7,068 nucleotides of DNA, from IMG/VR virus record IMGVR_UViG_3300008222_000005, one strand, 5' to 3'. Of the stretch, positions 1-7,068 are shown piece after piece. The DNA comes from a virus. Position numbers and translations under genes: made by a program. Position 1 is the stretch's first letter. Each line of letters opens with the position of its first letter. Under the pieces are notes generated by a model that saw only the letters and a program-made list of their open reading frames with translations, was not told the origin of the DNA and did not search any database.

Positions 1-123
1 CCTTTTTTTAAAAGTTGATAGCAAAAGCGTTTACCTGGTAAGTAAATCTGATAGCAAATTCTCTGCTGAAGTCTTCCGTTCGTGGGCATCAGTGATAGCA
101 TTTAGCTTTTTATCCGATTCAAC
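1..123. repeat. Left copy of the 123-bp direct terminal repeat (circularisation overlap or tandem-copy junction)
   Basis: Base-by-base identical to 6946-7068 (offset 6945). Confidence 0.95.
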
Positions 124-246
124 CAAACGCTCAGCATTTTCAATTAACCATAAAACTGCTTTGCTTTTTGTTGAATGATAAGATGAATCCATAAACTTAC
201 TTAAATATTTCTCTTGGTTCTCATCAAGTCTTAATGTAATAGCCAT
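31..246 (-). CDS. Ribbon-helix-helix (CopG/Arc/MetJ-like) DNA-binding protein, 71 aa; candidate phage regulator
   Basis: The N-terminus MAITLRLDENQEKYLSKFMD...SKAVLWLIENAERL fits a beta-strand/helix/helix RHH pattern. A strong SD (AAGGAG) lies 7 nt upstream of the ATG at 246. An extended -10 promoter lies just upstream. The last ~25 codons overlap two TGATAGCA copies. Confidence 0.7.
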   Translation of the reverse strand: MAITLRLDENQEKYLSKFMDSSYHSTKSKAVLWLIENAERLVESDKKLNAITDAHERKTSAENLLSDLLTR

Positions 247-278
247 TGTTTAACTCCTTTTGATTTGTTTATTCGTCT

Positions 279-287
279 ATTATAACA
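279..287 (-). promoter_or_regulatory. Extended -10 promoter element (TGTTATAAT on the minus strand) for the 71-aa RHH gene
   Basis: The reverse complement of 279-287 reads TGTTATAAT, matching TGnTATAAT. It lies ~33 nt upstream of the ATG at 246. The -35 position overlaps the iteron at 302-309. Confidence 0.55.
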
Positions 288-425
288 AAATCAAGATAAA
301 ATGATAGCATTTAAACGACTTGATAAGTTGTTTTGATAGCAAAAGTGATATTGGTCACGATTGCATTTTGATACCCGATTATCAAAACTCTAATTTGATA
401 AATCAAAATTGGAATTTGATTTGCT

Positions 426-447
426 TGGTTTTGCTATCAAAAAACCA
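426..447 (-). other. 7-bp stem hairpin presenting TTGATAGC in its 8-nt loop on the gene-sense strand; candidate Rep nick site / plus-strand origin
   Basis: Stem 426-432 (TGGTTTT) pairs with 441-447 (AAAACCA). Loop 433-440 reads TTGATAGC on the minus strand. This is the only iteron copy oriented on the gene-sense strand. Confidence 0.35.
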
Positions 448-505
448 TTACCGGTTCGTGATTTTGATAGCAATAAGTCGCCCTGGCAAAACAATATTGA
501 TAGCA

Positions 506-1726
506 TTAATTCATAGCAACAATAGAGTTAATAGGCTCCGCAGCATCAGGGTTAGATTCCTCTTGTTCTTCAATTTCAGGAGCGCAAGTAACAACACGCC
601 TAAACTCATTATAAGTAAGCGTATAAACACACTCAGTTAAAGCTGAGACAGAATAGCCAATATCCGATAAATCAGCATTCGTGGTTTTAAACATAAACTT
701 ACTATTCAAATAAACATCAAAGTAAATAATATCTAGAACTGAATCAGAATCAGTACTTAATGTATTACCAATCCTTTGATATTTAACCTGCCGCATACTA
801 CCAGTAGCATAAAAATCATAATTATCTAATGGCCCTAAAGAACCATACAAATTTTCATTATCAGAAATTATATAATTAGGATTAAATTTATCACTATCAG
901 AGTGTGGCTTTACTGACATGGGTAAGTTTGAATCTAAAGGCAGAACATCAGAATCAAAATCAGCATCAACGGTGACAGCTGGCGTTTCAACAACAGGCAA
1001 AGGATTATTTTTAGACTGATGATCAAAATAAAGATTAACCAAAATACCAATACCTAATATCATAAATATTGCAGAGCCGACGACAGGCCAAGAACGCCAG
1101 ATAGATTTAACATCACCAGCATGTGCTTCTTTTACTGCGTCATTAGATGCAGTGTGAGATTGGTAATATTTAAAATACGTCTTTTTATATTTTCGCTGAG
1201 AAGTATTAACAGTTTCACCAGCTGCACCAGTTCTAACTTTTTGCGTATAAGTGTTCGGAGAGCCTAACGCGGTATTTTTTTGGCATGAATAAGTAAGCTC
1301 TATCATGTCTTTAATATCACGATTTAACTTTCGCAGATTTTGAGTAATAAGAACAATATCGATACCATGATGACGATGCATTGAATACCATTCTAAAATA
1401 GGAACATTACAACCGCGAGTGGGTAAAACCATATGGGCTTCATCGACAACATAAAGCGCAGCCTGACCCTTATCATTACGCCATTCATCACTATAATCTT
1501 TAATAGTAGAAAACGGACGTTCATTAGAGCCAAAATCTGTAAGTTTACCGTCAACAACTAAAACAAGTTCTCTAACTTCTTCACCGAATGTTTTAACTAA
1601 TAATTCAACATTTAAAGGTAAATTAGTTATAACTTTACGACCTTTAGAAAGCGCTGGGATAATATGATAAACAACAGCCTCATAAGACTTGCCGCCTCCG
1701 GGCTTTCCTACTATTCCATAAATCAT
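506..1726 (-). CDS. zot: Zot / pI-family phage assembly ATPase (zonular occludens toxin-like P-loop NTPase), 406 aa
   Basis: Walker A GKPGGGKS (1685-1708), Walker B LYVVDEAH (1433-1456) and a central TM segment WPVVGSAIFMILGIGILVNLYF. The start overlaps the upstream stop (TAATG at 1724-1728). It occupies the canonical position after the pVI-like gene. Confidence 0.9.
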   Translation of the reverse strand: MIYGIVGKPGGGKSYEAVVYHIIPALSKGRKVITNLPLNVELLVKTFGEEVRELVLVVDGKLTDFGSNERPFSTIKDYSDEWRNDKGQAALYVVDEAHMVLPTRGCNVPILEWYSMHRHHGIDIVLITQNLRKLNRDIKDMIELTYSCQKNTALGSPNTYTQKVRTGAAGETVNTSQRKYKKTYFKYYQSHTASNDAVKEAHAGDVKSIWRSWPVVGSAIFMILGIGILVNLYFDHQSKNNPLPVVETPAVTVDADFDSDVLPLDSNLPMSVKPHSDSDKFNPNYIISDNENLYGSLGPLDNYDFYATGSMRQVKYQRIGNTLSTDSDSVLDIIYFDVYLNSKFMFKTTNADLSDIGYSVSALTECVYTLTYNEFRRVVTCAPEIEEQEESNPDAAEPINSIVAMN

Positions 1727-2039: not shown

Positions 2040-3578
2040 TTAACCCCCAAATATCATACTTCTAGCAGATGCTAAAGCAGTAAAAACAATACAAAATCTA
2101 ATAAACGACCATATAAATCCAAATCTTGAAATGAGATCGCCACAACCGTAGTGACCAAAAACGCCAAAATCTAAACACAATTCAAATGATGGTGCTGAAG
2201 CAGAACTTAAATCTAATGACGTAAAACTTTTAGATAAATTATAAAGAGGACCATTTTTTATATTGGTAACAAATGAAGATACAAGACCATTTAAACCATT
2301 TTGATAATAACTATTTCTAAAACCAATGCAGGTATCATTTTTATAACAATTACCATCACCAGAAGTATCGACAGTACCAAGGTCATCAAGCTTTTCACCT
2401 AACGAATCAAGTTTTTGACCCAAACCATCAAAACCATCTTGATTTATTTTACCAAGACCATCAAAGCCAGAATCTAAATTATCACCAAGACCATCAACCT
2501 TATTGCCAAGTCCATCAATCCCACCGCTAAGATCCCCGAACTTATCACCAAGCAAATTAAAACCATCAGCGGTAGTTGTACCAAGTTCATTAAAGCCGTG
2601 TTCAGTCGAGGATCTAATGGCATCCAAACCTAGAGTGCTAGAGGATTCCAGAGAGGACAATTTAGATAATAACTCTTTATTATCAGGACTCGTAGGGTCT
2701 GGATTAGTTGGGTCTGGATTAGTTGGGTCTGGATTAGTTGGGTCTGGAGGAGTGTTAATATTACATTCAGTTTTAACTTTTTTTGTCAGCTCACTACAAC
2801 TTTTAATAACAAAACTAAATGTATTATTACCAGCTCTCATAGAACAAAGCGCCCTATTTGAATTAACTTTTGAAACAGCCGCAGAAGATGAACAATATGT
2901 TTTAGTTGGGTCTTCACTTTCATCTCCACAATTAAGCATGCAAGGCAAATCACCACCGCCACCGCCACCAGTAGAACCACCAGAACCACCAGAACCACCA
3001 GAACCACCAGAACCACCAGAACCACCAGAACCACCAGAACCACCGCCAGTATTAGGGTCAATAGGGTCAGGATTAGGATTGCCTTGTTCGCCTAATGGGT
3101 CATCATCACTCGTTTCAAAATCAGTGCAGGAAGATAAATATTGACCTTTTTCAGAATCACACCTCTCATTAAAAAAAAGAGGTGCCAAGCAAGAAGCCTT
3201 AGATGATTCACGAGCTTGATTAACTTCATCAGAACCACAAAAATCTGGCTCAGGCTCAGGCTCAGGCTCAGGAGGTGGAGTATAAGCCCTTAAATAAACA
3301 TACCCTTTCGTTTGTTTATATCTAGAACCGCATGAAGGTTTCATATTAATCCAAAAAGACAATTTTCTACCAGTAGCTGAAGTTGGAGTGACATATGTAA
3401 TAAATTGACCGTTAGACATCGGTAAACACTGATTTGTCAACGCTGCTTGAGCCTCTGTATAACTAGCATAAGTTTTACCAACATAACCAGCAGGTAAATT
3501 ACCACCCGAAATTTGAACACCAGCAAAAGAGTTAAACGAACTCAAATAAAGTATCAATAAAAAAAATATTTTTCTCAT
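2040..3578 (-). CDS. pIII-like minor coat / host-adsorption protein, 512 aa (start trimmed to the internal Met of the 546-aa ORF)
   Basis: Signal peptide MRKIFFLLILYLSSFNSFA begins at the ATG at 3578, directly after the terminator. Cys-containing modules are separated by (EP)n, (GGS)8 and (PDPTN)n linkers. A Gly/Asp-rich DGLG repeat region and a hydrophobic C-terminal anchor (FGFIWSFIRFCIVFTALA) follow. The architecture matches Ff g3p. Confidence 0.8.
   Translation of the reverse strand: MRKIFFLLILYLSSFNSFAGVQISGGNLPAGYVGKTYASYTEAQAALTNQCLPMSNGQFITYVTPTSATGRKLSFWINMKPSCGSRYKQTKGYVYLRAYTPPPEPEPEPEPDFCGSDEVNQARESSKASCLAPLFFNERCDSEKGQYLSSCTDFETSDDDPLGEQGNPNPDPIDPNTGGGSGGSGGSGGSGGSGGSGGSGGSTGGGGGGDLPCMLNCGDESEDPTKTYCSSSAAVSKVNSNRALCSMRAGNNTFSFVIKSCSELTKKVKTECNINTPPDPTNPDPTNPDPTNPDPTSPDNKELLSKLSSLESSSTLGLDAIRSSTEHGFNELGTTTADGFNLLGDKFGDLSGGIDGLGNKVDGLGDNLDSGFDGLGKINQDGFDGLGQKLDSLGEKLDDLGTVDTSGDGNCYKNDTCIGFRNSYYQNGLNGLVSSFVTNIKNGPLYNLSKSFTSLDLSSASAPSFELCLDFGVFGHYGCGDLISRFGFIWSFIRFCIVFTALASARSMIFGG
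2695..2748 (-). repeat. 15-bp tandem repeat x3.6 (GGGTCTGGATTAGTT) encoding the PDPTN linker of the pIII-like protein
   Basis: Perfect units at 2695-2709, 2710-2724 and 2725-2739, with a partial unit at 2740-2748. Confidence 0.95.
2973..3044 (-). repeat. 9-bp tandem repeat x8 (AGAACCACC) encoding the (GGS)8 linker of the pIII-like protein
   Basis: Eight perfect consecutive units. They are flanked by further Gly codons (GGGGGG on the C-terminal side). Confidence 0.95.
3247..3270 (-). repeat. 6-bp tandem repeat x4 (GGCTCA) encoding the (EP)n linker of the pIII-like protein
   Basis: Four perfect units encoding PEPEPEPEP. Confidence 0.9.
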
Positions 3579-4594: not shown

Positions 4595-4801
4595 ATGCAC
4601 AATGATAATAGTGATTATAAAAAGATGATTGAAAACGATATGGCCAACATGTCTAAAATGCTAAGTAGTAAGGGAACTACAACCGTGAGAATTAAAAATG
4701 GAGTTTATGAAAAGGTAAAAGAGATATGCGAAAAAGATAATTTAATGTTAGTGGACTATATAAATACAGCTGTAGCTGAAAAAATAATCAGAGATAAATA
4801 A
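4595..4801 (+). CDS. 68-aa putative ribbon-helix-helix regulator, the only plus-strand gene
   Basis: AGAGG SD 8 nt upstream of the ATG. The core TTVRIKNGVYEKVKEICEKDNLMLVDYINTAVAEKII fits a strand-helix-helix pattern. A GC hairpin follows directly. It is convergent with rep and divergent from the structural operon. Confidence 0.65.
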   Translation: MHNDNSDYKKMIENDMANMSKMLSSKGTTTVRIKNGVYEKVKEICEKDNLMLVDYINTAVAEKIIRDK

Positions 4802-4803
4802 AT

Positions 4804-4820
4804 GGGGGCGAACCCCCTTT
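4804..4820. terminator. Short GC hairpin (GGGGG-CGAA-CCCCC) plus TTT between convergent genes; probable bidirectional terminator
   Basis: Stem 4804-4808 / 4813-4817, loop CGAA, T-run 4818-4820. It sits in the 22-nt gap between the stops of the 68-aa gene (4801) and rep (4824). Confidence 0.55.
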
Positions 4821-4823
4821 ATA

Positions 4824-6491
4824 TTAATTATTCAAATCTACATCGTAAGGGACAAGGGGCCGCTGCTTCAAAGATATTCTATTGTCTAAGAATAGCCCTT
4901 TAAAAAATCCCTTTCGGTGCTTCGAATTTGCAATTGAATAAACATCATCAACAATAGATTCTAAATAATCTGTGTTGTGGTCTAGTTCTAAAGGTAATTG
5001 AGATTTTATAACCTCAACTTTTACCCGCTCATTAATAACATCTTCTTCAAATTCATCATGAGATTTACCACGAGCATTAAAACCAAACTCAAAAACTTCA
5101 AAATCATCAGCAAATTTATCCAAACCAAAAAGGTATTGCGCAACTGCAGAAGAACCACCAGATTCAGCTAAATCTAGCACTAAATTTCTATGTTTAAGTT
5201 TTAATATTTGCTTCCACTCAGTCGGTAATATGTGACAAAGTAAGTCCGCTTTATCTTCTTCTTGAGCAATTATTTCCTCATCAGTAGCTTGAGCACCTAA
5301 ACCAAAATGAGCACGTAAACCTTTTGACCACCTCAGCATATTTTTCCCCTTGATAGCACGAGCATAAAACAAAAATAAAAATTTAGCCTCTTTACGTTGT
5401 TCCGCTGTTAAATCCGAATCAACAGAATCAGAAAGTAAAGCCCATGGCGTTTTAGAACCTTTTTTACCTAGCTTTGTCATACCCTTGGTCGCTTCATCCA
5501 TCATATCCCAAGTAATTTTTTTACCTGATTTAGTCTCTAATATTTGTTCATCACCGCCAAATTTAGAAATATATTCACCCGCTTTATCACCGTTTTGTAT
5601 ATCAAGACCATTCATATTAGGCATACCCAAACCAGCGCTAACAGATACAGACTTCCAACGATTTAAAATATGAATCCATGCATCAGATTGTTCATTTGAA
5701 ATATAACCTTTCTCACTTCTTTCGGTAGAGGGTAATTTTTTATCTGAAACGACAATTAAATGAAAATGCGGATGCCAACCATTAGCGCCATGCAAGACCT
5801 CAAATGATCTTACGTTACCAATGATCCCATATTTATTTTTAAATCGAGTTGCCCAAGCACCAGACCAAAACTTAGAAAGTGCATCAGATATTTTAGGTAA
5901 TAAATCTTCTATTTTATCAGCTGCTGTATGCGGAGTTGTTAACGTCAAAAGTGATAAGTTATTATTCATCGCCTCAGCTTGATTGGCCATCATGCGCAAC
6001 TCATTAGATTTACGCTCATTAATTTTTGCCGCACAAATTGGGCAAGTTGCAGCACTAGCGCAAGAACTAAGCCCAGAATAAAAAGACTTTTTATTAGTTG
6101 AAGATTTAACGATTGAGATAGTCGAAGAAACATTAATTCGAGTACATGAACAAGTGCGATGATAAACAGGGTAGCCGCCTTTGTTTATTGGCGTGTTATC
6201 ACCATGAAACAAATATAAAGCATCTCTTGCAGCATCTTGGAGTTTAAAGCGAATTTTACGAGCTTCCTTGGTGGCTTCAATAGGCGAAAGCTTACCAAGA
6301 ACAACATATTCACCAGTAGATTCATCTAAAAATCCAGCTGATTTTTTAGGGGGGGTAGGTAACTTTGCATATATACCGAGGGGCGCTCGATTTTCCAGTT
6401 CCACCCCCGACGAAACGAGGCCCCCGACTGGAAAATGAGCGCCCTCCGGTAAAGGTGTTGTAAAACCGTCAAATTGTTTGCTATTATTCAT
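4824..6491 (-). CDS. Rolling-circle replication initiator, HUH superfamily, pC194/pUB110 (Rep_1)-like motif set, 555 aa
   Basis: Motif 1 LLTLTTP (5931-5951). Motif 2 HPHFHLIVV (5748-5774, the HUH motif). Motif 3 GEYISKF with candidate catalytic Tyr307 (5559-5579). A Cys cluster (CSC ... C-x5-C-x2-C) lies upstream of motif 1. An extra ~200-aa C-terminal region follows the core. Confidence 0.85.
   Translation of the reverse strand: MNNSKQFDGFTTPLPEGAHFPVGGLVSSGVELENRAPLGIYAKLPTPPKKSAGFLDESTGEYVVLGKLSPIEATKEARKIRFKLQDAARDALYLFHGDNTPINKGGYPVYHRTCSCTRINVSSTISIVKSSTNKKSFYSGLSSCASAATCPICAAKINERKSNELRMMANQAEAMNNNLSLLTLTTPHTAADKIEDLLPKISDALSKFWSGAWATRFKNKYGIIGNVRSFEVLHGANGWHPHFHLIVVSDKKLPSTERSEKGYISNEQSDAWIHILNRWKSVSVSAGLGMPNMNGLDIQNGDKAGEYISKFGGDEQILETKSGKKITWDMMDEATKGMTKLGKKGSKTPWALLSDSVDSDLTAEQRKEAKFLFLFYARAIKGKNMLRWSKGLRAHFGLGAQATDEEIIAQEEDKADLLCHILPTEWKQILKLKHRNLVLDLAESGGSSAVAQYLFGLDKFADDFEVFEFGFNARGKSHDEFEEDVINERVKVEVIKSQLPLELDHNTDYLESIVDDVYSIANSKHRKGFFKGLFLDNRISLKQRPLVPYDVDLNN
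6376..6449. other. 74-nt GC-rich imperfect hairpin/cruciform inside rep codons 15-39
   Basis: 6390-6399 pairs with 6427-6436 (10 bp), G6389 bulges, and 6381-6388 pairs with 6437-6444 (8 bp). After a small internal loop, 6376-6378 pairs with 6447-6449. The 27-nt loop (6400-6426) carries two CGGGGG repeats on the minus strand. Confidence 0.8.
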
Positions 6492-6540
6492 AATGAATTA
6501 TCCTAGAAGCCTGCGAAGCTGTGGTTAATTTAGATTTTTA

Positions 6541-6575
6541 AGCACTATCTGACGCCAATCGGATGGTGCTTTTTC
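6541..6575 (+). other. 12-bp stem hairpin followed by T5; looks like an intrinsic terminator on the plus strand, or an origin/packaging hairpin, in the non-coding region upstream of rep
   Basis: AGCACTATCTGA (6541-6552) pairs with TCGGATGGTGCT (6559-6570) using two G-T wobbles. The loop is CGCCAA, followed by TTTTT (6571-6575). On the minus strand the wobbles become C-A mismatches. Confidence 0.45.
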
Positions 6576-6945: not shown

Positions 6946-7068
6946 CCTTTTTTTAAAAGTTGATAGCAAAAGCGTTTACCTGGTAAGTAAATCTGATAGC
7001 AAATTCTCTGCTGAAGTCTTCCGTTCGTGGGCATCAGTGATAGCATTTAGCTTTTTATCCGATTCAAC
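6946..7068. repeat. Right copy of the 123-bp direct terminal repeat
   Basis: Identical to 1-123. The repeat runs to the window end, so its true extent is unknown. Confidence 0.95.

Follow-up and report, generated by a model that had tools for sequence, protein, structure and literature searches.

Phased arrays of an 8-bp box around a small ribbon-helix-helix gene of an inovirus: a putative portable operator system

The viral DNA of IMG/VR record IMGVR_UViG_3300008222_000005 (7,068 nt; "the window" denotes this whole stretch) carries repeated copies of an 8-bp box around a gene for a 71-aa protein with a predicted ribbon-helix-helix (RHH) fold. Positions 1-123 exactly repeat positions 6946-7068, a terminal redundancy of 123 nt, so the window represents a circular genome of 6,945 bp; the genome is that of an inovirus, with a G+C content of 36%. 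The box reads TGATAGCA on the plus strand of the window and TGCTATCA on the strand that encodes the RHH protein; because the viral (+) strand of inoviruses has the sense of mRNA, the latter is also the phage strand, that is, the minus strand of the window. Comparison with related genomes suggests that the boxes are most likely binding sites of the 71-aa RHH protein and not of the replication protein, Rep, and that they probably mediate cooperative autorepression, by RHH dimers linked through their C-terminal helices, of an operon consisting of the RHH gene, a short open reading frame (ORF) denoted orf64 and the Rep gene.

Box arrays and promoter of the RHH operon

The window contains 12 exact matches to TGATAGCA, against 0.36 expected, and 12 matches were reached in none of 200 shuffled sequences. 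Because the contig is circular, the copies at 6961, 6994 and 7038 duplicate those at 16, 49 and 93, which leaves nine unique copies. Eight of these lie within positions 16-505, in direct orientation at 16, 49, 93, 302, 334, 465 and 498 and inverted at 432. The ninth, at 5351-5358, is isolated within the Rep gene and is probably a chance occurrence. The start-to-start spacings are 33, 44, 209 (19 x 11), 32, 98, 33 and 33 bp, the 98 becoming 131 when only direct copies are counted; in 100,000 random placements, a set of four neighbouring spacings of 32 or 33 bp did not occur once, and the eight copies share the phase of an 11-bp period (R = 0.86). Flanking sequences are shared by subsets of the copies, namely TTGATAGCAAAAG at 15-27 and 333-345 and TGATAGCATTTA at 93-104 and 302-313. 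The elements of the operon and the boxes are as follows.

31-246 (read from 246 to 31), minus strand: gene of the 71-aa RHH protein, ATG at 244-246
6938-6744, minus strand: orf64, a 64-aa ORF
6491-4824, minus strand: Rep, a protein of the Rep_1 family (PF01446)
279-287, minus strand: extended -10, TGTTATAAT (also written TGTTATAA(T)), of the RHH-orf64-Rep promoter
498-505, minus strand: RHH box 1, TGCTATCA on the coding strand, an exact match and the first of the 33-bp-spaced array; position kept in relatives L152 and L219
465-472, minus strand: RHH box 2, exact match; relative L001 has TGATATCA at the aligned site
432-439, plus strand: RHH box 3, exact match, inverted relative to the other boxes
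369-376, minus strand: degenerate box, GGGTATCA on the phage strand, 35 bp from box 4 and roughly in phase; CGGGTATCA in L001 and L152
334-341, minus strand: RHH box 4, of the promoter-proximal pair with 32-bp spacing; AT-rich spacer lacking a CCNGG core
302-309, minus strand: RHH box 5, on the -35 hexamer; L001 and L152 have TGGTATCA there
93-100, minus strand: in-gene box in the codons N-A-I-T, at +146 from the ATG in all window-clade relatives
49-56, minus strand: in-gene box in the codons L-L-S-D, at +190 in all window-clade relatives
16-23, minus strand: post-stop box, 8 nt past the RHH stop codon in the gap before orf64; same +8 position in L001, L153 and L219
6961-7045, minus strand: boxes 16, 49 and 93 printed again (terminal redundancy)
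381-420: separate element found by repeat analysis, two palindromic units of ~21 bp, ATCAAA-N-TTTGAT

A first-pass annotation, made from the letters of the window alone, had reported eight perfect copies within ~500 bp together with their spacings and shared flanks, all of which proved correct. The same is true of the relations to genes that it described: the copy at 302-309 lies on the -35 position, those at 93 and 49 fall in the NAIT and LLSD codons, and that at 16 is in the 37-nt gap between the RHH gene and orf64. It had also counted at least seven degenerate copies into the array. These exist (TGATA at 176, 321, 346, 369 and 396, TATCA at 380 and TCATAGCA at 511), but for the most part do not belong to the array and are not conserved in the closest relative, L001, the exceptions being 369-376, which is possibly a weak site, and two copies within the palindromic element at 381-420. 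That element is kept in L001 and L152 and accounts for some of the degenerate TGATA copies; in L219, whose Rep is 73% identical to that of the window, it is replaced by three 21-bp direct repeats of TATTGTAATATGTGACAGGTC, ahead of an extra 228-aa ORF. It is a separate, swappable element that lies between the two groups of boxes and outside the RHH box array.

The promoter is interwoven with the boxes. Its -35 hexamer (302-307), separated by a 17-nt spacer from TATAAT, is covered by box 5, and the extended -10 is itself one mismatch away from a box (TGNTATCA) and is kept as TG(C/T)TATAAT in L001, L152 and L153. A ribosome-binding site, AAGGAG, is present at 254-259, upstream of the RHH start codon. 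The RHH gene, orf64 and the Rep gene follow one another on one strand, on which no terminator-like site was found from the RHH gene to Rep. The window clade thus has a box on the -35, whereas in the related Shewanella clade box 3 itself is the extended -10 (TTGAYT-16-TGNTATCAT).

The boxes accompany the RHH family

Relatives were collected by three independent routes, starting from Rep, from the motif and from the RHH protein, respectively (contigs are cited by our labels). The Rep-first search yielded 31 IMG/VR contigs that encode relatives of Rep, none of which carries an array of TGATAGCA. The closest of these, L001 (Rep 84% and RHH 69% identical), is alignable across the whole region and has boxes at the box positions of the window, but they are spelled TGATATCA or TGGTATCA. 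In the Rep_1 relatives L002-L009 no box array was detected.

The motif-first search, in which the DNA of IMG/VR alone was scanned for box pairs with a spacing of 31-34 bp, returned mostly single chance matches and four small contigs with at least six boxes (L049, L052, L076 and L133). All four encode, beside the boxes, a homologue of the 71-aa protein (37-52% identity), and none encodes a Rep_1 protein. A scan of 185,579 genomes with a three-box pattern gave 61 matches; a single matched locus was found to encode the RHH protein, and it is located at the end of a Shewanella morhuae prophage.

The RHH-first route began with a scan of IMG/VR with the single protein, which found nothing, whereas alignment-based and motif-based scans did recover homologues. 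A profile search produced 45 clusters, all annotated as 'hypothetical', with the named ones all from Shewanella and one labelled 'NikA [Inoviridae sp.]'. Additional homologues came from a metagenome scan, and the homologues were traced to their own contigs (L001, L152, L153, L219, L221, L222, L224-L232 and the Shewanella phage Dolos); box arrays flank the gene in all of these except L229, which encodes a divergent homologue. Altogether, the order 32-bp-spaced promoter array, RHH gene, 33-bp-spaced array is shared by about 20 related cassettes, and the phages that carry them have Reps of three unrelated families. Rep belongs to Rep_1 in the window, L001 and L219, to Phage_CRI in L221 and to Phage_GPA in L222; the Reps of L155 and Dolos have the same size, 714 aa, as the Phage_GPA Rep of L222. 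The occurrence of the same boxes with three Rep families indicates that the boxes travel with the RHH gene and not with Rep. The motif search in related inovirus genomes that the first-pass annotation had proposed as a check was thereby carried out, with the outcome that the 8-mer covaries with the 71-aa RHH protein. Its suggestion that the copies are operators of one of two RHH proteins of the genome, with autoregulation, gains support and can be narrowed to the 71-aa protein, because the boxes travel with this family, flank its gene and vary at one base in step with residue 4 of the protein (see below).

Phage Dolos, the only isolate with the module, is a cultivable Shewanella inovirus in which the family is represented by Orf9 (OP867012.1, spd_00009). 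Four 32-bp-spaced and three 33-bp-spaced TG(A/G)TATCA boxes surround orf9; the box is the variant TGATATCA, the protein has valine at position 4, Rep is of the Phage_GPA type and the module is antisense to the phage genes. The authors of the Dolos report noted for Orf9 a vague antitoxin similarity alone and did not describe the boxes (OP867012.1). The 7,995-bp 'plasmid' NC_009038.1 of Shewanella baltica OS155 shares segments of ~82% identity with the Dolos regulatory region and is probably the replicative form of an inovirus filed as a plasmid.

The plasmid-like contig L229 (1-1531) encodes a divergent 85-aa RHH homologue directly after the C-terminus of a ParA and a ParG-like small protein. 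It also contains an inverted pair of TGGTATCA boxes, with GCCGGC and CCTGG in the spacer, ahead of a downstream gene.

Box base 3 covaries with RHH residue 4

On the strand that encodes the RHH protein the box reads TGNTATCA, in which only N (base 3) varies and the other seven positions are invariant or nearly so. The identity of this base follows residue 4 of the adjacent RHH protein.

Thr4 (window, L153, L154, L155, L178, L076, L156, L221, L227 and L228): base 3 is C in 68 of 72 boxes
Pro4 (L001, L152 and L226): base 3 is A or G, no C
Leu4 (L219): base 3 is A or G, no C
Val4 (Dolos, L222 and L230-L232): base 3 is A or G, with one T in Dolos, no C

Among the proteins with Pro, Leu or Val at position 4, C at base 3 was found in none of 65 boxes. 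The switch arose at least twice, once in the window clade and once in the Shewanella clade, where the Thr4 proteins of the L228 type are close to the Val4 Dolos group. Moreover, predictions made from the protein sequence alone held when the respective contigs were read: the homologue P0005 (Leu4) was accompanied by A/G boxes and P0032 (Thr4) by C boxes. In the RHH register, I3, L5 and L7 are the hydrophobic positions and A2, T4 and R6 point outward; within the family, A2 and R6 are invariant or almost so. The outward-facing residues correspond by analogy to R4, T6 and T8 of CopG. By this analogy residue 4 would point into the major groove, and the covariation suggests that it reads base 3 of the box.

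The boxes within the RHH gene provide a second line of evidence. Where the box is of the TGATATCA type, GCT is changed to GAT (A to D) at +146 and CTA to ATA (L to I) at +190, such that proteins whose genes carry TGCTATCA boxes read NAIT...LLSD or MLSD and those with TGATATCA boxes read NDIT...LISE or LISS. Because the same base change was made in both in-gene boxes at the cost of the A-to-D and L-to-I replacements, these copies appear to be functional DNA sites, and we regard the recoding as direct evidence, at the level of sequence, for such a function.

The 71-aa protein is a predicted RHH protein with a long C-terminal helix

An AlphaFold2 model built with the family alignment (pLDDT 91) consists of an extended strand (residues 1-8), a helix (9-22) and a continuous helix (27-70). 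The top Foldseek matches of this model are RHH domains of NikR, MazE (MazE-mt1), MatP, ParD and CopG, with NikR at a probability of 0.97 and a root-mean-square deviation of 1.3 Å over 38 columns and CopG in complex with DNA (1ea4) at 1.5 Å over 39 columns; a Foldseek search with the model from the single sequence was uninformative. The predicted strand-helix-helix architecture would place the protein in the RHH (Arc/MetJ/CopG) superfamily. No match was found in NCBIfam, and the PHROG match (36048) is to a family of unknown function. An exhaustive search of 1.84 billion representatives with a hidden Markov model found only 74 clusters, so that the family is small; the length is typically 70-73 aa in the core family and 78-107 aa in divergent members. 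Alignment of the family with that of the second, Arc-like RHH protein of the window by hhalign gave a weak in-register match with a probability of 8%.

As regards a possible toxin-antitoxin locus with a MazE- or ParD-like antitoxin, a set of eight to ten phased operators would be unusual. In the window no ORF separates the RHH gene from its promoter, and the small ORFs upstream of the RHH gene in relatives, absent from the window, are mutually unrelated and match no toxin family. FpsR of Shewanella phage SW1 was considered as an RHH homologue and was ruled out, as it is a Cro/cI-type helix-turn-helix (HTH) protein. A search of the literature for the 8-mers, or for RHH proteins together with filamentous phages and operators, returned nothing relevant.

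A model of cooperative autorepression

We propose that one RHH dimer binds each quasi-palindromic 8-bp box, with the side chains of A2, T4 and R6 of the β-strand facing the major groove. The 44-residue C-terminal helix would link neighbouring dimers across three helical turns, in a manner similar to Mnt or MatP, and the C-terminal helices might also join the two arrays, resulting in cooperative occupancy. Occupied boxes would occlude the RHH-orf64-Rep promoter, and those at the 3' end of the gene might in addition act as a roadblock to read-through into orf64 and Rep. The RHH protein would thereby regulate its own synthesis and set the level of Rep, as CopG does for repB in pMV158.

Several observations weigh against this model or limit its scope. 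Simple autorepression requires neither eight to ten boxes nor conserved CC(W)GG cores between them. In the Shewanella-clade relatives the RHH gene is divergent from Rep, so that co-transcription with rep of the CopG type does not hold there and the module cannot serve generally to control Rep dosage. As evidence, the covariation amounts to two or three independent switches rather than ~20 independent cassettes; the Thr4 cassette L153 has a mixture of C and A boxes and contributes all four of the Thr exceptions, and the divergent Thr4 homologue of L229 has TGATATCA/TGGTATCA boxes ~500 bp away. As for the fold, the Foldseek E-values are 0.16 or worse, as expected for a match of only ~40 residues; the Pfam families ParD, VapB and RHH_1 are matched below threshold (E = 0.006-0.06) in one or two of 29 members, and no sequence match to the 71-aa protein was found in the PDB.

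Comparison with known systems

The closest parallel is CopG (RepA) of pMV158/pLS1, a small RHH protein encoded just upstream of a rolling-circle replication rep gene on the same strand, with an operator that overlaps the -35 of the shared promoter. The window shows the same arrangement, with the putative repressor gene upstream of rep, a shared promoter and boxes overlapping it, and the motifs at the start of helix B (TKSKA..LIEN against LSKSA..ALEN) are similar, as is the fold. In contrast to the system described here, in which isolated 8-bp boxes lie 32-33 bp apart, number eight per genome and in part fall within the gene, CopG binds one 13-bp pseudosymmetric element as contiguous dimers. 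CopG is also shorter (45 aa) and lacks the long C-terminal helix; control of its type involves a partner antisense RNA, whereas Rfam detected no RNA family in the window; membership was not found at the sequence level, Pfam RHH_1 being sub-threshold, and in relatives the module is divergent from rep.

With boxes several helical turns apart, the bridging would have to be done by a domain other than the RHH core. In this respect Mnt of phage P22, MatP of Escherichia coli and NikR are comparable, because in these proteins a C-terminal domain joins two RHH dimers; the 71-aa protein is likewise predicted to combine an RHH with a long C-terminal helix. However, Mnt has a single operator, MatP joins matS sites that lie far apart and possesses an additional four-helix bundle, NikR has a metal-binding ACT domain, and none of the three has phased arrays around its own gene.

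In ω of pSM19035, ParR of R1/pSK41 and ParG of TP228, one RHH dimer binds each short, non-palindromic or quasi-palindromic repeat, the many direct and inverted repeats are located over promoters, and in pB171 the arrays flank the operon. Their repeats are contiguous units of 7-20 bp and function with a ParA or ParM partner, whereas here the boxes are 24-25 bp apart and no nucleoside triphosphatase (NTPase) gene of this kind was found; neither contiguous iterons nor a ParA/ParM gene, the hallmarks of type Ib and type II partition centromeres, are present in the window. MetJ likewise recognises one 8-bp palindrome-like metbox per RHH dimer, and TGATATCA is comparable to AGACGTCT; metboxes, unlike the boxes described here, are tandem and abutting, and MetJ requires a co-repressor.

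Among filamentous phages, RstR (with ig-2 of CTXφ) and FpsR (SW1) are repressors that act at several intergenic operators of the rep promoter, and their specificity modules vary between related phages. Both are HTH proteins (PMC4762005). They are unrelated to the 71-aa RHH protein and lack phased 33-bp arrays. An RHH repressor with repeated operators is a known kind of system; the protein family, the three-turn arrays of two types, the in-gene operators and the code linking residue and base are new.

What is understood of replication control in filamentous phages concerns only a few HTH repressors (RstR, FpsR and Pf4r), and the RHH cassette would represent a different, mobile regulatory module for these phages. 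It offers a recognition code that can be read from sequence, Thr4 with C and Pro, Leu or Val4 with A or G at base 3, and a case in which the requirement for operators visibly dictates amino acids in the tail of the regulator itself. Shewanella oneidensis together with phage Dolos, which carries the module, makes the system tractable. A higher-order protein-DNA assembly is suggested by the spacing of three turns, the existence of two types of array and the CC(W)GG cores; a role in Xer recombination or copy control, if true, would be of wider interest for plasmids and phages, and for the module as an orthogonal repressor/operator set.

Two types of array and alternative explanations

Across the cassettes the boxes are arranged in two ways, with AT-rich spacers of 24 nt (32-bp spacing) or with spacers of 25 nt (33-bp spacing), each corresponding to three helical turns. 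The promoter of the operon lies in the 32-bp array; in the window, the 33-bp type comprises boxes 498, 465 and 432 upstream and the 49/16 unit at and after the 3' end of the RHH gene, and boxes 2 and 3 form a perfect 12-bp inverted repeat (431-442 / 462-473). A central CCGG/CCNGG is present in 26 of the 29 spacers of 25 nt and in none of the 23 spacers of 24 nt, against a chance expectation of 1.8% per spacer. Cored 33-bp arrays were found in the window, L001, L152-L155, L178, L219, L222, L230-L232 and L218, and the CCWGG and (A)CCGG(T) cores usually alternate, giving a super-unit of 66 bp. The cores in the window are the following.

482-486: CCTGG, centre of the 25-nt spacer between boxes 1 and 2
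450-455: ACCGGT, centre of the spacer between boxes 2 and 3; CGAACCGG(T/C)AA kept in the window, L001, L152 and L219
34-38: CCTGG, centre of the last 33-bp unit, overlapping the gene end ACC-AGG-TAA

The last of these is kept as CCAGG at the RHH stop codon in L001, L153 and L219. An explanation of its AGG as a rare codon was dropped, AGG making up 14% of the Arg codons.

In the window clade the module runs in the same sense as the phage genes, in the Shewanella clade antisense to them, and despite this flip the order of the spacer types is constant relative to the RHH gene, which points to an autonomous module of duplex DNA rather than an element of the viral strand. The idea that the 33-bp array has a fixed polarity relative to the viral strand was accordingly rejected, since the order of spacer types follows the RHH gene.

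In the Shewanella-clade phages the 33-bp array has, after its last box, a dif-like core for the recombinases XerCD (GACGCGCACAA-6-TTATGTTACGG), which in four cassettes of the Val4 (V4) group starts exactly one unit (32-34 bp) past that box. Another dif-like site, in inverted orientation, is present ~125 bp beyond, an arrangement also found in the attP of CTXφ, and in L178 the core after the last box is located at the end of a prophage. The dif-like sites are at these positions.

L222: 7537
L230: 906
L231: 1176
L232: 1853
L155: 8060
L178: 2511
L154: 5926
L218: 6684-6711

These features raise the possibility, to which we assign a minor share of the probability, that the 33-bp CC(W)GG arrays are chiefly architectural, with the RHH protein forming a scaffold that pairs arrays in handcuffing or partition, or that serves as an accessory of XerCD, and with repression as one output. 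The two array types with their distinct conserved spacers, the position of the arrays on both sides of the gene, the register with the dif-like core, the proximity of the divergent homologue in L229 to ParA and ParG-like genes, and the resemblance of the long C-terminal helix to the bridging domains of MatP and Mnt are all compatible with such a role. However, searches of the window, L001 and L219 yielded no dif-like site, a partition NTPase is missing from the 6.9-kb genome, whose sole NTPase is the Zot assembly ATPase, and the reasoning proceeds from layout throughout. A tentative form of the idea is a portable nucleoprotein module in which the RHH protein polymerises along a 33-bp helix ruler and bridges the arrays, and which could handcuff replicative-form copies to control copy number or serve XerCD in a cer/psi-like manner; a possible accessory role for XerCD is suggested because the Shewanella-clade array is in register with the dif-like attP core.

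It is improbable that the inverted boxes act mainly as hairpins in the single-stranded DNA (ssDNA) of the virion, as a packaging signal or minus-strand origin. The intergenic ssDNA does fold stably (-37.3 kcal/mol, z = -4.6), the fold including the perfect 12-bp stem of boxes 2 and 3, but most boxes are direct repeats, and L153 has a six-slot direct/palindromic array with an exact 33-bp spacing (five exact boxes and one with a single mismatch on the -35). Furthermore, the module flips relative to the viral strand between clades with its internal order kept, and pairing outside the boxes, as judged by eye, is not conserved. At most, hairpin formation would be an added role of the 432/465 pair.

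The second RHH protein of the genome, the 68-aa Arc-like protein encoded at 4595-4801, is a very improbable owner of the boxes. An Arc-like RHH gene is present in all examined complete genomes with the module, and the protein of the window matches PHROG 582 (Arc-like repressor), yet L155 and Dolos, whose Arc-like proteins share 87% identity, have different boxes (TGCTATCA versus TGATATCA/TGGTATCA), and conversely those of the window and L155 are barely alignable (15 identical of 37 aligned residues) while both genomes have TGCTATCA. In addition, the boxes flank the gene of the 71-aa protein and not that of the Arc-like one. The product of the small ORF that precedes the RHH gene in relatives also fits less well as the binder, this ORF being absent from the window.

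The first-pass annotation had offered, as a second reading, that the copies are iterons or nick-site determinants of the Rep_1 protein, which is of the pC194/phiX type. TTGATA within the box, an exact CTTGATA at 319-325 and the assignment of Rep to PF01446 speak for this reading, which we nevertheless reject and consider scarcely credible: the box does not covary with Rep, as the same array occurs with Rep_1, Phage_CRI and Phage_GPA proteins, the Rep_1 relatives L002-L009 lack it, and L001 and L219, with Reps 84% and 73% identical to that of the window, carry TGATATCA/TGGTATCA. The exact CTTGATA is indeed present, but it and TTGATA are on the plus strand of the window, the complement of the coding (viral) strand that an inovirus Rep nicks, and 319-325 is not conserved in L001. 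Finally, host-factor sites or reiterated extended -10-like elements (TGnTATCAT) can practically be dismissed: the box resembles TGnTATAAT and one Shewanella-clade box is the -10 of the operon promoter, but base 3, which an extended -10 leaves unspecified, is uniform per phage and covaries with a residue of a phage protein, and most boxes end in TATCAA and hence lack the T at -7.

Other features of the genome

The contig stems from JGI metagenome 3300008226. A single gene of the genome is on the plus strand; in addition to those listed above and below, the minus strand encodes an ssDNA-binding-like protein, a major coat protein, a g3-like protein and a DUF2523/g6-like protein.

1726-506, minus strand: Zot/gI ATPase
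4595-4801, plus strand: 68-aa Arc-like RHH gene, the sole plus-strand gene, between Rep and the ssDNA-binding gene; its product matches PHROG 582

A near-identical search of GenBank phages found no DNA similar to the window, and a protein search against them found for Rep only distant similarity (27-32%) to inoviruses of Pseudomonas and Propionibacterium. No match to orf64 was detected in Pfam, PHROG or NCBIfam, and no RNA family in the window was detected with Rfam. The Arc-like gene is followed by a terminator-like hairpin, GGGGG-CGAA-CCCCC-TTT (4804-4820), and the L001 contig breaks exactly at the region corresponding to window positions 4595-4820.

Two further hairpins lie near the start of Rep. 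A G+C-rich hairpin of ~69 nt (6379-6447, minus strand; DNA fold -25.5 kcal/mol, z = -5.7) falls within the ~40 codons that open the annotated Rep ORF and is unique to the window phage, L001 and L219 having a different N-terminal stretch at this place. The other, at 6540-6571, ~70 nt upstream of the Rep start, is kept in L001 and L219 with compensatory changes; it sits in a non-coding block of 250 nt that is ~80% conserved, is terminator-like on the plus strand and is a candidate for the Rep origin or an attenuator. The gene of the g3-like adsorption protein contains tandem coding repeats of 15 nt (PDPTN) and 9 nt (GGS) at 2690-2750 and 2950-3050, which are typical linker repeats.

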